Source: a virus (Duplodnaviria; Heunggongvirae; Uroviricota; Caudoviricetes). Taken from it: 4,057 nucleotides of DNA. Of this stretch, positions 1 to 4,057 are shown piece by piece. The stretch lies in IMG/VR virus record IMGVR_UViG_2695420701_000014; one strand, written 5' to 3'. The notes below the pieces were generated by a model. The model was given only the letters and a program-made list of their open reading frames with translations, searched no databases and was not told where the DNA came from. Position numbers and translations under genes: made by a program. The stretch's first letter is position 1. Each line of letters opens with the position of its first letter.

Positions 1-673
1 TCATGACCATGCGATCCATCACCCGCTCGCCGAGAAGTGTATTCATCGCTGCATGGTTAATATTTGTCAGCATCCCCACACCGCGTAACGATGCCGTCCG
101 GCGATCAACAATCTGGTTCAGTACCACCTGCTCGTTTTTCGTATCCCGCTGCATGCCAATTTCATCCAGGACCAGCAGGTCAACACCACAAAGCTCCTGT
201 AAAAATTTTTCACCGGATTTGCCGTTGTCGTAGCTCTCATGCAACACGCTCATGACATCGGACACGGTGACGATAATCACGCTACGCCCCTTCGCCATCA
301 GCCGGTTGCCAATCGCGTCTGCAAGATGATTTTTTCCGGTGCCGGGCTTACCGCTGAACACAAAATTCGTACAGCCTGTCATCAGTTCGTCAGCTATGGA
401 TTTCGCCTGACTCAGTGCATGTCGCTGACCGTCGTTCTGCGCCCGGTAATTCGCAAACGAACACTTCCGGTGCAACGGCTGGATGCCGGAGCGGTTCAGG
501 ATTTTTTCCACCCGCAACTGACGATTCAGGCGGTTGATCTCCTCGCAACGTTTCTGGCCTTCAGCAAGTTGCCACTCGCGCCACTCCGCAACCGTTCTGA
601 ATGGGGCGGTTACATGTGGTGGGGTCAGTCTGCGGATACGCTCCAGAACGCCTCCTGTCGCAATATTTTTCAT
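1..673 (-). CDS. DnaC-like AAA+ helicase loader (phage P-function analogue, YdaV-like); partial, C-terminal ~20 aa lie beyond the window edge
   Basis: Minus-strand frame from ATG 673-671 reads MKNIATGGVLERIRRLTPPH...FVFSGKPGTGKNHLADAIGN...VDLLVLDEIGMQRDTKNEQVVLNQIVDRR...GERVMDRMVM with no stop before position 1. Walker A GKPGTGKN is encoded at about 331-352 and a Walker B-like LLVLDE follows. The order of motifs is collinear with E. coli DnaC as I recall it. An SD-like AGGGGG sits 6 nt upstream, inside the end of the preceding gene. The ORF is absent from the supplied track because it has no stop inside the window. Confidence 0.9.
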   Translation of the reverse strand, partial: MKNIATGGVLERIRRLTPPHVTAPFRTVAEWREWQLAEGQKRCEEINRLNRQLRVEKILNRSGIQPLHRKCSFANYRAQNDGQRHALSQAKSIADELMTGCTNFVFSGKPGTGKNHLADAIGNRLMAKGRSVIIVTVSDVMSVLHESYDNGKSGEKFLQELCGVDLLVLDEIGMQRDTKNEQVVLNQIVDRRTASLRGVGMLTNINHAAMNTLLGERVMDRMVM

Positions 674-679
674 GGTCTG

Positions 680-1828
680 TTACCCCCTGAAGCCTGGCGG
701 GATCGCACTGTCCGGCAACGAGACGGTGTTAACCTGTCGGAGCAACGTCTCAGGCCGAACACCTTTCGGCGCGAACAGGCCCTGGTATTCATTGGCGATG
801 CTGTGTCGAATCACCTGCTCAGGTGTAAAACCCTGCTGACGGAATTTTTCCAGTTCCCGTATCGCCCCGTTAGCGCCCTGCTCCGTTCGAATCGGTTTTC
901 GCAATGCCTGCCTGAACTGGACCCACTCATGCCAGAGTGTTTCTGGCAACCAGTCGGGCAGATCAACTGACAACGGGTCAAATTTTTTCTGGCGAACAGC
1001 CCCACCGATAACCAGAATTCCCTGCTCGGTGTGCCTTGCGATATCACTGCGCCGCAAGACACATATCCCGGTTTCAACAGCACCGATTTTGAGCAGTGAT
1101 TTCTGTCGCGGAGAATTTCGGTCAAGCTCGCTCCCACACCGGACACCGTTCCTGTCAGTCACGACGATATCAATCCGCCCTCCGCAACCGTCACCACGCT
1201 CTGGCACCGGATACTCACGACAGACATCCAGGCCAGCAGCCTGCAACGCAACCACCGCAGAATTACAAAATTCCGCTGCAGTACCGCCAGATAATCTCCC
1301 CTCAAGCACTCCAGCCACAAAATCCCGAAACTCCCTTCCGGAAGGGAAGGGTTTGGGATGGGTTAGATCTGTTTTTAGATCTTTATCTGTATCTTTATTA
1401 GTTGCCTTTGTGTTGGCATCATGTTCGAACATCACTCCAACATCTGTTTGAACACCTGTTAAATTTCTCTCTTGTTTTGTTTGAACATCTGCTTCCTTTC
1501 TGCTTCTTCTGGCCTGAACAGATGCTTTTCCTGCGGCTGATTTTTTGGTTAATTTTTCTCTGACAGATGCCAGATCTTCCTCAATCCGAAGATGCATCCA
1601 TTCGTCGCCGTTATCACAAAAAAACTCCCGCAAGGATGGTTCAACATCAACCCATCGCTCGTTAGTCAGACGGGCAATTTTTGCCAACCTGTTTTTGGGT
1701 ATTGGCTTTCCTGTTTGCCAGTAATTGAACATCAGCAACAAATACGCGCCGTGCTCCTCTGCTGACAAATGCATGGTGTCAGCCAGGTAATCAGCTATGT
1801 ACAGTTGCATGTATGGTAATGCGGCCAT
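680..1828 (-). CDS. Replication initiator, O-like, with DUF1376-type N-terminal domain (YdaU-like); iteron-encoding K/D/T-rich linker; C-terminal domain presumed to recruit the helicase loader
   Basis: ORF-track frame 680..1879 (399 aa). I place the start at ATG 1828-1826 (MAALPYMQLYIADYLADTMHLSAEEHGAYLLLMFNYWQTGKPIP...) because it is preceded by a GGGG SD at 5-nt spacing, whereas ATG 1879 has no SD and adds a hydrophobic 17-aa extension. The N-terminal Y-x-x-D-Y-L-x-D-T...E-x-H-G-A-Y pattern matches DUF1376 replication proteins as recalled. Stop TAA at 682-680 lies 6 nt upstream of the DnaC-like ATG, implying translational coupling. Gene order Cro-like, CII-like, O-like, P-like matches lambdoid replication modules. 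Confidence 0.8.
   Translation of the reverse strand: MAALPYMQLYIADYLADTMHLSAEEHGAYLLLMFNYWQTGKPIPKNRLAKIARLTNERWVDVEPSLREFFCDNGDEWMHLRIEEDLASVREKLTKKSAAGKASVQARRSRKEADVQTKQERNLTGVQTDVGVMFEHDANTKATNKDTDKDLKTDLTHPKPFPSGREFRDFVAGVLEGRLSGGTAAEFCNSAVVALQAAGLDVCREYPVPERGDGCGGRIDIVVTDRNGVRCGSELDRNSPRQKSLLKIGAVETGICVLRRSDIARHTEQGILVIGGAVRQKKFDPLSVDLPDWLPETLWHEWVQFRQALRKPIRTEQGANGAIRELEKFRQQGFTPEQVIRHSIANEYQGLFAPKGVRPETLLRQVNTVSLPDSAIPPGFRG
1363..1577. other. Putative phage origin of replication embedded in the O-like gene: iteron-like repeats plus AT-rich tract with AGATCT/GATC sites
   Basis: GAACA-centred repeats at 1427, 1450, 1483 and 1516 (spacing 23, 33, 33 bp): ATGTTCGAACAT (12-bp perfect palindrome, 1421-1432), CTGTTTGAACACCTG (1444-1458), TTGTTTGAACATCTG (1479-1493, 13/15 identical to the previous), CCTGAACAGATGC (1513-1525), and a degenerate copy CTGACAGATGC near 1560-1570. 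An adjacent AT-rich tract at 1363-1400 (TTAGATCTGTTTTTAGATCTTTATCTGTATCTTTATTAG) carries two AGATCT hexamers, with a third at 1572-1577. The arrangement parallels the lambda ori inside gene O (established knowledge). Confidence 0.5.
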
Positions 1829-1891
1829 AATTGCCCCGTATGATGCTGCCCGGTTGCTTAGAATAAGCACAAACAGCATGGAAACTTTTGC

Positions 1892-2314
1892 TTAATGAAC
1901 AATGACAGAATCGTCGGAAGACCCGCCGCCGCTGAAATGCGCTTTCCGGTAAACGGCCTGGACTGCATCATCATGCGCATCAATTGCCGTACTCAACGCT
2001 TCCTGCGCCGCCAGTAATGCACGGCGTTCCAGGGTATCGAAGATGCAGAGTCGGTGACGCAGCTCGCGCGGAAGAATTGCCAGAACCGCAGGGATCAGTT
2101 TCTGAATTTTTTCCCTTTGCGCTTTCGTTTCACCTTTCAACCAACGGTGATAGATATTCTGCTGATTGTTCCAGTCCTTGCCTGGTACAAGGGGCAATTC
2201 GCCGCCCCCCTGGCGCAGATATTCTTCAGTAATTGCGTTAGCGACCCACGCCTGCCCTTTTTCGGCTGCCAGGGCTAACAACACTGATTCGATGTGCTCA
2301 TGCCTGATTTTCAT
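1892..2314 (-). CDS. YdaT-like protein (140 aa), proposed functional equivalent of lambda CII in Rac/CP-933P-type prophages
   Basis: 140-aa ORF (MKIRHEHIESVLLALAAEKGQAWVANAITEEYLRQ...). Its start ATG 2314-2312 overlaps the stop TGA 2313-2311 of the upstream Cro-like gene (ATGA overlap). Size and position immediately after the Cro-like gene and before the O/P-like genes match ydaT of Rac-type prophages. The assignment is by context and recollection, not a search. Confidence 0.7.
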   Translation of the reverse strand: MKIRHEHIESVLLALAAEKGQAWVANAITEEYLRQGGGELPLVPGKDWNNQQNIYHRWLKGETKAQREKIQKLIPAVLAILPRELRHRLCIFDTLERRALLAAQEALSTAIDAHDDAVQAVYRKAHFSGGGSSDDSVIVH

Positions 2315-2553
2315 GAATCAACCGCTCCTATGCTGTTTTCGCTATGCTTACCGTCTGGGGGGAATACATCGTCAAGTCCACAATGAGCGCCAAGCCGATT
2401 AAGGGTAGAAACAATTTTTCTGCACTCCTCTAGTCCAGGGGTACGAAAATTTGCTTCGTAATTTGCCAGTCGGCTTTGTATCCACCCTAACTGAACAGCA
2501 AGTTGTCTTTGAGACAGCCCAAGCTGTTTTCGATATGTTGAAATTTTGTTCAT
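2311..2553 (-). CDS. Cro-like HTH (XRE family) transcriptional regulator, 80 aa (YdaS-like position)
   Basis: ATG at 2553-2551 preceded by GGAGG with 6-nt spacing. The product MNKISTYRKQLGLSQRQLAVQLGWIQSRLANYEANFRTP... has a clear HTH (LGLSQRQLA...GWIQSRLANYE). It is divergent from the repressor gene across a 96-bp operator-bearing spacer. Confidence 0.8.
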   Translation of the reverse strand: MNKISTYRKQLGLSQRQLAVQLGWIQSRLANYEANFRTPGLEECRKIVSTLNRLGAHCGLDDVFPPDGKHSENSIGAVDS

Positions 2554-2649: not shown

Positions 2650-3069
2650 ATGGAAAAAGAAAACGAAAAAATTGCCGCTAGTAGGCTCAATGACAAAATT
2701 GCAATGCGTCTTAAAGAGCGCAGGCAGAAGCTTGGTTTATCTCAAGGAAAACTTGCTGAAATCTGCGGATGGACGCAATCGCGTATAGGTAACTATGAGG
2801 CGGGCAGCAGAAATGTTGGAGTACATGACGCTGTCGTATTGGGAAAGGCACTTGGCATATCTCCTCCTGAGCTCCTCTTTGGAGAACAGGAATCTTCTGA
2901 ATTGTGGTTAAATGAATCCCAACGAAAACTTCTTGAGTTGTTTAACCAGCTACCGGGCTCAGAACAACAACGAATGATTGAGCTATTTGAAGTCCGGCTA
3001 AAAGAAATCGATGAGTATGTAGAAAAATATTTGAGAGGCAGGATTAAAGATAATCCCCCACCGGAATAA
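2650..3069 (+). CDS. Prophage repressor, CI-functional/RacR-like, XRE-family HTH, 139 aa, no LexA-like S24 peptidase domain
   Basis: ATG 2650 with AAGGA SD 4 nt upstream. HTH LGLSQGKLAEICGWTQSRIGNYEAG; the recognition-helix region GWTQSRIGNYEA is nearly identical to that of the Cro-like protein (GWIQSRLANYEA). The C-terminal ~60 aa are charged and helical-looking (ELWLNESQRKLLELFNQLPGSEQQRMIELFEVRLKEIDEYVEKYL) and too short for an S24 autoprotease fold. An intrinsic terminator follows. Confidence 0.85.
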   Translation: MEKENEKIAASRLNDKIAMRLKERRQKLGLSQGKLAEICGWTQSRIGNYEAGSRNVGVHDAVVLGKALGISPPELLFGEQESSELWLNESQRKLLELFNQLPGSEQQRMIELFEVRLKEIDEYVEKYLRGRIKDNPPPE

Positions 3070-3099
3070 TGATCTTGCTATCACAGTAATATGCCAATC

Positions 3100-3123
3100 A
3101 GCCCGCTATCAGCGGGCTTTTTT
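3100..3123 (+). terminator. Rho-independent terminator of the repressor transcript
   Basis: AGCCCGCT-atc-AGCGGGCT forms a perfect 8-bp GC-rich stem with a 3-nt loop, followed directly by a T-run (3118-3123), 31 bp after the repressor stop codon. Confidence 0.75.
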
Positions 3124-3152
3124 GTAGCATCATCATATGACACTCACCATAA

Positions 3153-3194
3153 AACACGTTGCGTGTTGACACAAGAAAACAAATTGTGTTTAAT
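3153..3194 (+). promoter_or_regulatory. pL-like early promoter (sigma70 -35 TTGACA, 17-bp spacer, -10 TTTAAT) overlapped by two operator dyads
   Basis: -35 TTGACA at 3166-3171 (consensus) and -10 TTTAAT at 3189-3194 (5/6) with a 17-bp spacer. Operator AACACG-ttg-CGTGTT (3153-3167, perfect dyad) overlaps the -35; AAAACA-aat-TGTGTT (3176-3190, 11/12) overlaps the spacer and -10. Centres at 3160 and 3183, 23 bp apart, the same spacing as the OR-like cluster. Confidence 0.55.
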
Positions 3195-3374
3195 AAGCAT
3201 ATCCAAACAACGCCCCACCAGAGAACGGCAGGACAATACCTCGAGTTATCCAGTCACTGAACAGGGCTAAGTAGCCAGCCTGAGGCATACGAACATGACG
3301 GCAGTTGTTGATTGATACAAAGCGCAGTAGATAAAACGTTCCGCCACCCGGCGTTAAGGGGAAATGGGGTCAAC

Positions 3375-3530
3375 ATGAATACTATCGATCTTGGCAACAA
3401 CGAATCTCTGGTATGTGGCGTGTTTCCCAATCAAGACGGCACATTCACCGCCATGACGTATACCAAAAGCAAAACGTTTAAAACCGAAGCTGGCGCACGT
3501 CGTTGGTTGGGAAGACATTCAGGTGAGTAA
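3375..3530 (+). CDS. Small hypothetical protein, 51 aa; first gene of the putative early-left operon
   Basis: ATG 3375 with GGGG SD 5 nt upstream; product MNTIDLGNNESLVCGVFPNQDGTFTAMTYTKSKTFKTEAGARRWLGRHSGE; stop TAA 3528-3530 lies 1 nt before the next start. The track ORF 3312..3530 begins at a TTG with no SD, so I do not use that start. No family recognised from memory. Confidence 0.5.
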   Translation: MNTIDLGNNESLVCGVFPNQDGTFTAMTYTKSKTFKTEAGARRWLGRHSGE

Positions 3531-3531
3531 A

Positions 3532-3735
3532 ATGAACGAGACAGAATTAAAACACGTTATCGCTCTACTCCTAGAAGATGCAAAACGCCTCCAGCAACTG
3601 GAGCCAAATGCAGGCACTGGGGCACGCATCTGGCTGGCTAAAGAAGCGCTGGAATCTGGCGATTATGATAGCGAAGAAGCCTTCTACAAAGCAGAAGGCC
3701 GTGCAGGATATTCACCGGGTCTTGGCGGGGTATAA
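3532..3735 (+). CDS. Small acidic hypothetical protein, 67 aa, translationally coupled to the upstream 51-aa gene
   Basis: ATG 3532 preceded by AGGTGA SD (3521-3526) at 5-nt spacing; the track start at 3523 is GTG without an SD. Product MNETELKHVIALLLEDAKRLQQLEPNAGTGARIWLAKEALESGDYDSEEAFYKAEGRAGYSPGLGGV. No family recognised. Confidence 0.5.
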   Translation: MNETELKHVIALLLEDAKRLQQLEPNAGTGARIWLAKEALESGDYDSEEAFYKAEGRAGYSPGLGGV

Positions 3736-4002
3736 ATACCATGCGCATTGACTGAATTCGCAAACAAAAACAGACGCGCGATACCTGGATAGTCGGTCTG
3801 CATAGTCAGATATCTGGCTGCGAATTTGATAAATATCACCGCCCTTTTCGGAAACATAAGTTCCGTCCGGGAGTTGATTATACGAACCATCTCCATGGGG
3901 GATCGTTCTCCTGAATCCTAGTGAGAGCATATATTTATGAAGCCCTTCGTAATCCTCTGGCTCAGCATTATATAGTTCTACTCTGGCGAGATACGTTGGC
4001 AT
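3712..4002 (-). CDS. Hypothetical protein, 96 aa, convergent with and overlapping the 3' end of the small-gene pair
   Basis: ATG 4002-4000 preceded by AAGGAA SD with 6-nt spacing (AAGGAAatgaatATGCCA). Product MPTYLARVELYNAEPEDYEGLHKYMLSLGFRRTIPHGDGSYNQLPDGTYVSEKGGDIYQIRSQISDYADRLSRYRASVFVCEFSQCAWYLYPAKTR. The track start at 4041 is TTG and the frame stays open to the window edge, so the N-terminus is not fully certain. Its 3' end overlaps gene 3532..3735 by 24 bp. Confidence 0.6.
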   Translation of the reverse strand: MPTYLARVELYNAEPEDYEGLHKYMLSLGFRRTIPHGDGSYNQLPDGTYVSEKGGDIYQIRSQISDYADRLSRYRASVFVCEFSQCAWYLYPAKTR

Positions 4003-4057
4003 ATTCATTTCCTTACTGGTTGTGTGTGAAGTGGTCAACAAAAACTGGCCACCGAGT

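Follow-up and report, generated by a model that had tools for sequence, protein, structure and literature searches.

The window analysed here, 4,057 bp of the IMG/VR record IMGVR_UViG_2695420701_000014, belongs to a Rac-type lambdoid prophage of Escherichia coli, whose immunity and replication region it represents, and near its right end it carries a minus-strand gene for a 96-aa protein that is a member of a large known phage family without a characterised function (YmfI-like/DUF2622, distantly GhoS-like). The gene belongs to a small cassette that takes the place of sieB in the early-left arm and, in this copy, is interrupted by the insertion sequence (IS) IS911. Its family, fold, cassette structure, slot, orientation and the IS911 interruption are established below, and we have high confidence in the identity, family and cassette architecture of the gene as described. 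As the best overall explanation we tentatively propose that this sieB-slot cassette encodes a lysogen-expressed, RNA-directed accessory or exclusion factor, a reading that we consider slightly more apt to fail than to hold. The cassette and its surroundings comprise the following features:

3712-4002, minus strand: 96-aa open reading frame (ORF) for a soluble 11.2-kDa YmfI-like/DUF2622 protein with a predicted ferredoxin-like fold.
4010-4014, minus strand: Shine-Dalgarno AAGGA, 7 nt from the ATG, by reading of the sequence.
3678-3700, minus strand: terminator-like 10-bp hairpin, 11 nt past the stop codon, then UCUUCGCUAU (U-rich).
4003-4026, minus strand: native 5' leader, of which 24 nt are left between IS911 and the ATG.
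4027-4057, minus strand: IS911 right inverted repeat (terminal 31 nt), with the transposase oriented towards the 96-aa gene.
3532-3735, plus strand: 67-aa ORF, YmfJ-like over residues 1-42 and then a read-in tail.

The 96-aa ORF is intact from its ATG (4002-4000) to its stop codon (3714-3712), converges with the plus-strand early-left genes and shares 24 nt with the 67-aa ORF at the 3' end of the latter. The start M1 is common to 91% of the 125 members of the family alignment, and the Shine-Dalgarno is kept in the E. coli, Salmonella and metagenome-assembled genome (MAG) leaders as well as in that of ymfI of the K-12 element e14. An ATG two codons earlier was considered as the start and rejected, as its Shine-Dalgarno spacing would be 1 nt and the alignment favours the 96-aa start. 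The ratio of nonsynonymous to synonymous substitution rates (dN/dS) is 0.30 against the Salmonella homologues and 0.12-0.13 against the MAG homologue, and the gene is thus under purifying selection and more than a chance ORF. The encoded protein has a predicted pI of 6.1 and no hydrophobic segment (maximal 19-residue hydropathy 0.56). The initial annotation had proposed a real convergent gene transcribed against the early-left operon, and on both points it is borne out by the intact ORF, its selection, its minus-strand position and the family matches that follow.

The same annotation could assign the protein to no family, but the protein matches phrog_8894 (function unknown) over its full length (E 3.5e-38, 131 bits, residues 1-94 on profile positions 1-93 of 94), and an exhaustive profile search retrieved 938 representative clusters at E <= 1e-3, nearly all of them single-domain proteins of ~95 aa; the longer family members examined contained no informative domain fusions. 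Salmonella homologues that are 85-88% identical are named “DUF2622 domain-containing protein” by NCBI. The NCBIfam model NF051477 (YmfI, equivalog) is matched colinearly (residues 3-90 on 3-88 of 89, E 4.1e-14) with 52.9 bits, short of the equivalog cutoff of 140 bits. In BLASTP, the protein is 26% identical to e14 YmfI over 93 residues, a full-length match (E 1e-9), and a profile of the 125 family members aligned with YmfI in hhalign with 97% probability (E 4.9e-11). From these comparisons, the 96-aa protein is best read as a relative of YmfI and not as an equivalog.

The relationship to GhoS is more distant. The Pfam search of the 96-aa protein returned no match to PF11080 (GhoS) at E <= 0.1, and its close homologues score 12-18 bits against PF11080, below its gathering threshold of 21 bits. 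Individual matches to it were obtained for 58 of the 125 family members (best E 2.4e-8), and some distant members pass the gathering score (21.9 and 25.8 bits). Besides PF11080, no Pfam family was matched by more than one of the 125 members. Profile-profile comparison with true GhoS gave a weak match of consistent register (probability 27-36%, pairwise E 4e-4 to 7e-4). True GhoS forms a narrow Escherichia/Shigella chromosomal clade, all found matches to which are at least 64% identical, and the relation is thus a distant superfamily relationship and not orthology. That this clade is so narrow, compared with the 938 clusters of the YmfI-like family, would fit a derivation of GhoS from the phage family as an offshoot. 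Single-protein sequence searches of Pfam, PADLOC and PDB gave no match, the defence-protein hidden Markov models of PADLOC-DB v2 yielded zero families at E <= 1, and a profile search of PDB returned a chance match only.

The AlphaFold2 model built on the deep alignment of 125 sequences (pLDDT 92, pTM 0.81) is a beta-alpha-beta-beta-alpha-beta ferredoxin-like fold, the best solved structural match of which is GhoS, tied with a Cas2-type RNase. This model supersedes an earlier one from 6 sequences (pLDDT 77), which had yielded generic ferredoxin-fold matches only, with an ACT domain on top; a search of the viral fold database BFVD with the model returned no match at E <= 0.001. Across the 125-member alignment, R7 and Y18 are invariant and Y49 (98%), P45 (97%), H22 (96%) and E9 (91%) are nearly so. 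In the hhalign register, an alignment of low confidence, the family E9 falls on GhoS D15 and H22 on GhoS R28, so that the catalytic Arg28 of GhoS would be replaced by His in 96% of the family; R28 has been reported as the most important residue for GhoS RNase activity (PMC4010927). The Arg/Glu/His/Tyr set could fit a metal-independent RNase site. K-12 YmfI has H7, R9, T18 and E22 in place of R7, E9, Y18 and H22 and is a divergent branch; the best-known member of the family is hence atypical, and its activity may have changed or been lost.

On the DNA level, the gene is part of a compact, moron-like unit consisting of a putative extended -10 element, a leader of ~40 nt, the ORF and a hairpin. 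The leader, TGGTAT(C/G)(T/C)T...GTTCTCACACA.CCAG.AAGGAAA, is common to the E. coli, Salmonella and e14 ymfI genes, whereas Rac sieB shares the upstream DNA up to GGTGGT only. The extended -10, TGG-TAT(C/G)(T/C)T, stands at the 5' cassette boundary in all uninterrupted copies, and in the viral contigs L028 and L030 a different upstream module is joined exactly at GTGGTATCTT. The cassette promoter nonetheless remains a candidate picked by eye because a consensus promoter scan flagged none for the 96-aa cassette. At the other end, the 3678-3700 hairpin (RNA folding energy -14.5 kcal/mol, z -2.85) closes the cassette on its 3' side. The Salmonella homologue has an equally placed hairpin that leads into a U-run, and DNA homology to the Salmonella cassette stops at window position 3687, 25 nt past the stop codon, inside the hairpin. 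Rfam returned no match in or beside the 96-aa gene within the window.

The leader also contains an inverted repeat just upstream of the Shine-Dalgarno (L001 6904-6946, and likewise in loci L009, L003 and L023), which reads ACTG...CAGT in E. coli and GCTGGA...TCCAGC in Salmonella. As an RNA hairpin it is weak (-2.7 kcal/mol; two compensatory pairs in the 7 sequences compared), and it is possibly an operator instead. The IS911 of the window is inserted inside this repeat. YmfI has been listed as a protein of unknown function with a “potential SOS box” (PMC6590174); the reported box falls outside the conserved leader, and no LexA box of the form CTG-N10-CAG was found by eye in the available leader.

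The interruption of the window copy is evident at its right edge. In L001, an annotated IS911 copy of 1249 bp runs from its left inverted repeat at 11057 (TGAAGTGGCACAC...) to its right inverted repeat at 12305 (...GTTGACCACTTCA), and its last 31 nt (12275-12305) are 100% identical to window positions 4027-4057. Every close E. coli match ends at window position 4030, and homology to the uninterrupted loci L001 and L009-L012 likewise reaches only ~4030, with a mismatch at 4027. The DNA beyond the edge is therefore an insertion sequence and not the gene's own promoter, which the initial annotation had placed there. Neither does the TTGACC that had been pointed out at 4031-4036 belong to the gene: it lies two bases off, at 4038-4033 on the minus strand, within the IS911 right inverted repeat and facing outward, and in IS3-family right ends an outward -35 builds the minicircle junction promoter (PMC3219604). 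A hybrid promoter formed by the IS911 -35 and the flank is unconvincing, since the candidate -10, TAAGGA, 17 nt downstream, matches TATAAT at 2/6 positions and overlaps the Shine-Dalgarno.

IS911 cuts this copy off from its putative native promoter, with the ORF and the native -10 region held ~1.25 kb apart, and the window copy is probably silent or expressed only via IS911 read-through, which is possible because the transposase reads towards the 96-aa gene. The stop of the contig at its right end is probably explained by an assembly break at the IS911 repeat. Position 1 of the window falls inside the DnaC/YdaV-like gene, and this end may be a repeat-type assembly break as well.

The slot of the cassette is defined by comparison with the K-12 Rac prophage, which is arranged as racR-ydaG-ydaF(DUF1391)-sieB; there, sieB converges on ydaF, and kilS and kilR come next. 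The upstream DNA of the E. coli O121 copy matches the intergenic region between K-12 kilR and sieB, including kilS, with 91% identity up to 39 nt before the ATG. Given this same upstream DNA and the position after the DUF1391 gene, the 96-aa gene occupies the sieB slot, in agreement with the accessory unit in a sieB-like neighbourhood that had been proposed from the sequence alone. The gene is found in 19 of 5426 complete E. coli genomes, compared with 4121 that match some part of window 3100-4057, and K-12 has sieB in its place. E. coli O55:H7 DEC5A has the uninterrupted allele, in NZ_CP038394 around 2,245,285-2,245,621, and shows the gene order repressor, DUF1391 gene, truncated ymfJ, 96-aa gene (unannotated), kilR, ydaE, recE and recT, and in TUM1880 dicB comes after the 96-aa gene.

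Beyond this slot, the gene is found between the early-left genes and kil or kilR in Salmonella lambdoid prophages and likewise in the MAG prophage, between Q and the holin gene in Citrobacter, and, in Pseudomonas phage Cruim01, in convergent orientation two genes beyond the C2 repressor, where the overlap is 24 nt; it is also present in Burkholderia and Ralstonia phages. The ymfI gene of e14 adjoins the repressor gene ymfK and lies convergently to ymfJ, with which it overlaps. In the Salmonella, MAG, Citrobacter, Pseudomonas, Burkholderia and Ralstonia contexts, at least one adjacent gene block is convergent, mostly with a lone gene opposed on both sides, and the 3' ends overlap the convergent ORF by 4-63 nt in every context sampled. 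Distant members reside on integrative elements (including those of Caulobacter and Bryobacteraceae) beside genes for a ThsB-TIR protein, a Schlafen-like ATPase, HigBA and AbiGi-like proteins, in operons co-oriented with their downstream neighbours.

No recurring partner gene was found in 15 other contexts. The idea that the gene and its convergent partner ORF form a conserved two-gene cassette was considered and rejected, as the N-termini of the partners are unrelated and only the antisense-encoded tail is shared. This C-terminal tail, EGRxGxSxGLGxV, is common to the partner ORFs of the window, Salmonella, MAG, Citrobacter and Cruim01 loci because these ORFs read into the antisense strand of the conserved 3' end of the cassette (window 3532-3735; L009 6268-6516; L012 6268-6570; L013 6285-6506; L005 4268-4447), and such chimeric C-termini will pass through gene callers as real protein sequence. 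In the window ORF, residues 1-42 are 81% identical to e14 YmfJ before the sequence diverges (BLASTP E 4e-23), its PHROG matches cover residues 1-44 only, of longer families, and the NCBI annotation pipeline PGAP labels the 67-aa ymfJ-like ORF a C-terminally truncated pseudogene in loci L001, L016 and L017.

The 96-aa ORF is intact, with at least 99% identity, in each of the 19 complete E. coli genomes in which it occurs, and PGAP/RefSeq annotates it in none of the 19 (for example, L016 5001-5337 and L001 6613-6903); the pipeline annotates the overlapping ymfJ fragment as a pseudogene while the intact ORF stays uncalled. Among viral contigs, L024 has an IS2 in the leader (2654-3980), L040 an IS2 at codon 13 (2674-4004), where contig L041 also breaks, and L042 an IS630 at codon 28 (2849-4001), and the database versions P0004, P0007, P0009 and P0011 are frameshifted. 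Together with the window IS911, this amounts to four independent insertions of three IS types in one ~330-bp unit, a clustering that is possibly beyond chance, although the hosts may be IS-rich Shigella-like lineages. Such hosts may account for the IS load, as may a relaxation of selection in cryptic prophages or a mild counter-selection.

The remainder of the window follows the Rac-type plan, of which the DUF1391 gene is a marker:

3375-3530, plus strand: DUF1391 (YdaF-like) early-left gene (Pfam PF07151, E 5.8e-29).
3100-3118: terminator-like hairpin past the repressor gene.
2650-3069, plus strand: helix-turn-helix (HTH) repressor of the immunity region (Pfam HTH_3, E 4.6e-13).
2311-2553, minus strand: cro-like HTH gene.
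1892-2314, minus strand: YdaT-family gene.
680-1879, minus strand: YdaU/O-like gene.
1-672, minus strand: DnaC/YdaV-like gene.

A putative pL-like promoter, picked by eye, lies at 3166-3194 (TTGACA, 17 nt, TTTAAT). Among the compared loci, the MAG prophage L012 has a second convergent overlapping pair beside the YmfI-like gene (5239-5532, plus strand; 5513-5782, minus strand), the first ORF of which encodes a 97-aa protein with a CPICG motif that is unrelated to YmfI, and this prophage arm may hold more than one antisense cassette. In the Salmonella locus L009, the pL strand carries a 41-aa, strongly hydrophobic ORF (5625-5750, minus strand) in the interval from the cassette to kil. In L001, Rfam IsrK and C4 antisense RNA are matched at 7368-7556, inside the 5' part of a coding sequence annotated as a Rha family regulator, a pattern suggestive of a P1/P7-type c4-icd-ant immunity module and of a coding sequence call that extends too far.

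The cassette, which has taken over the place of sieB in the early-left arm, points against the pL operon, and the mechanism that we propose builds on this arrangement. In an intact prophage, the cassette's own promoter would probably transcribe it while pL is repressed, and after induction convergent pL transcription would probably silence it, as in an excludon. The protein would probably act on RNA, binding or cleaving specific transcripts via R7, E9, Y18, H22 and Y49, and the lysogen could benefit through exclusion of incoming phages or through control of prophage transcripts. Taken by itself, such an RNA-directed mechanism of lysogen benefit is rather unlikely, though we give it serious weight.

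The protein could instead bind host RNA polymerase in the lysogen and block or alter the transcription of superinfecting phages, in the manner of the sequence-unrelated HK022 Nun. YmfI was recovered at relatively high intensity in an RpoC-TAP purification of RNA polymerase from E. coli K-12 (PMC3942186), and the gene is placed and oriented like a lysogen-expressed unit adjoining the immunity region. However, this is a single proteomic observation without follow-up, it may not transfer from a K-12 protein that is 26% identical and lacks R7, E9, Y18 and H22, and searches of PDB and BFVD found no similarity to known RNA polymerase-binding phage proteins, so that we hold this role to be distinctly unlikely. 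A type V-like antitoxin, that is, a GhoS-type endoribonuclease curbing a toxic prophage transcript such as that of kilR, dicB or kil, which come next in the pL operon, would accord with the distant GhoS relationship and with the position of the lambdoid gene just before kilR, dicB or lambda-Kil in the pL direction. Yet this adjacency follows simply from the sieB slot of the lambdoid gene order, the cassette also occurs without a nearby kil (in the Citrobacter Q-holin slot, the Burkholderia and Ralstonia phages and the Caulobacter and Bryobacteraceae elements), and no ghoT-like small membrane ORF was found downstream or in the window cassette, which together leave such an antitoxin quite improbable. 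Least credible of all is a SieB-type membrane protein for superinfection exclusion or abortive infection, which would fit the shared slot behind the same upstream DNA but is refuted as a mechanism by the lack of sequence similarity (BLASTP E 0.7), the low maximal hydropathy (0.56, compared with 2.19 for SieB) without a transmembrane segment and the predicted soluble ferredoxin-like fold; exclusion as an outcome is still compatible with the data.

Two further explanations reduce the role of the protein. The window copy, and perhaps the E. coli/Shigella allele generally, could be a non-functional remnant decaying in a cryptic prophage, as the separation of the ORF from its promoter by IS911, the IS2 (L024, L040), IS630 (L042) and frameshifted versions, the missing PGAP annotation in all 19 genomes and the truncated ymfJ-like neighbour might suggest. 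This has a low probability in our view: the ORF is intact in the window and in all 19 complete genomes, the family is under purifying selection with invariant residues, read-through from the IS911 transposase could express the gene, and the IS-bearing hosts may simply be IS-rich. Alternatively, convergent transcription of the cassette might hinder or degrade the pL transcript and so tighten lysogeny, with the protein being secondary, in line with the 4-63-nt convergent early-left overlap in every context sampled and with the listing of ymfI-ymfJ and sieB-ydaF as convergent excludons (PMC12288877). The dN/dS of 0.12-0.30 and the residues invariant over 125 diverse members, however, show selection on the protein, and distant members sit in operons co-oriented with their downstream neighbours, which makes a purely RNA-level role very unlikely.

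In a wider reading that builds on the proposed RNA-directed factor, the YmfI-like/DUF2622 proteins of the 938 clusters would form a hitherto unrecognised class of RNA-targeting factors that stand alone and are expressed in the lysogen, either orphan GhoS-like endoribonucleases or binders of RNA or RNA polymerase, with an R-E-Y-H-Y site, and that exclude superinfecting phages; their promoter-gene-terminator cassettes would travel between prophage hotspots such as the sieB slot, the Q-holin slot and defence islands, and GhoS would be a domesticated offshoot. We regard this generalisation as unlikely, and offer it as a speculation. If the family does act on RNA for the lysogen, a very small single-gene exclusion module would be added to the prophage defence repertoire, and the type V antitoxin GhoS would gain an evolutionary origin in phage accessory genes. 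In any case, the ORF is now testable, with defined cassette boundaries and the candidate active-site residues R7, E9, Y18, H22 and Y49, and natural controls exist in the form of IS-interrupted alleles, intact alleles and sieB-carrying sister prophages. The analysis also exposes an annotation gap, as RefSeq makes no call for the ORF in any of the complete E. coli genomes carrying it, and illustrates that a “promoter” at a contig end can turn out to be the inverted repeat of an insertion sequence.

Among known systems, SieB (Rac, lambda, P22) resembles the 96-aa gene in its early-left slot, antisense orientation, convergent overlap with DUF1391/ydaF and upstream DNA, but it is a 162-aa membrane protein whereas the 96-aa protein is soluble. 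GhoS (YjdK), the type V antitoxin endoribonuclease of PF11080, has in common with it the Cas2-like ferredoxin fold predicted for the 96-aa protein; however, in K-12 ghoT lies directly downstream of ghoS, whereas the stop codon of the 96-aa gene is followed by a hairpin and a convergent gene. In addition, the GhoS clade is narrow and chromosomal, whereas the YmfI-like family is broad (Proteobacteria and beyond) and is carried by phages and mobile elements. The Cas2/VapD endoribonuclease fold is likewise, on the predicted model, among the closest known systems to the 96-aa protein.

Morons are independent promoter-gene-terminator units inserted in phage operons. The 96-aa cassette is similar to them in its own putative -10 and hairpin, its presence in only some of otherwise similar prophages, its varied positions and its opposition to at least one flanking operon; it differs in that its promoter is assigned by eye and that its GC content (46%) is barely below that of the flanks (48-49%).

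YmfI of e14 (K-12 b1143) has colinear full-length similarity to the 96-aa protein and the same convergent overlap with a ymfJ-type gene beside a prophage repressor. Over the ~60 nt just upstream of the gene, the e14 ymfI leader shares ~90% identity with the leader of the Salmonella homologue and ~75% with that of the E. coli O121 copy of the 96-aa allele. YmfI differs in the absence of R7, E9, Y18 and H22 and in a 17-residue C-terminal extension. In K-12 RNA-seq, ymfI-ymfJ and sieB-ydaF are both listed as convergent overlapping transcripts, or excludons (PMC12288877), and ymfI is thus transcribed from the resident prophage.

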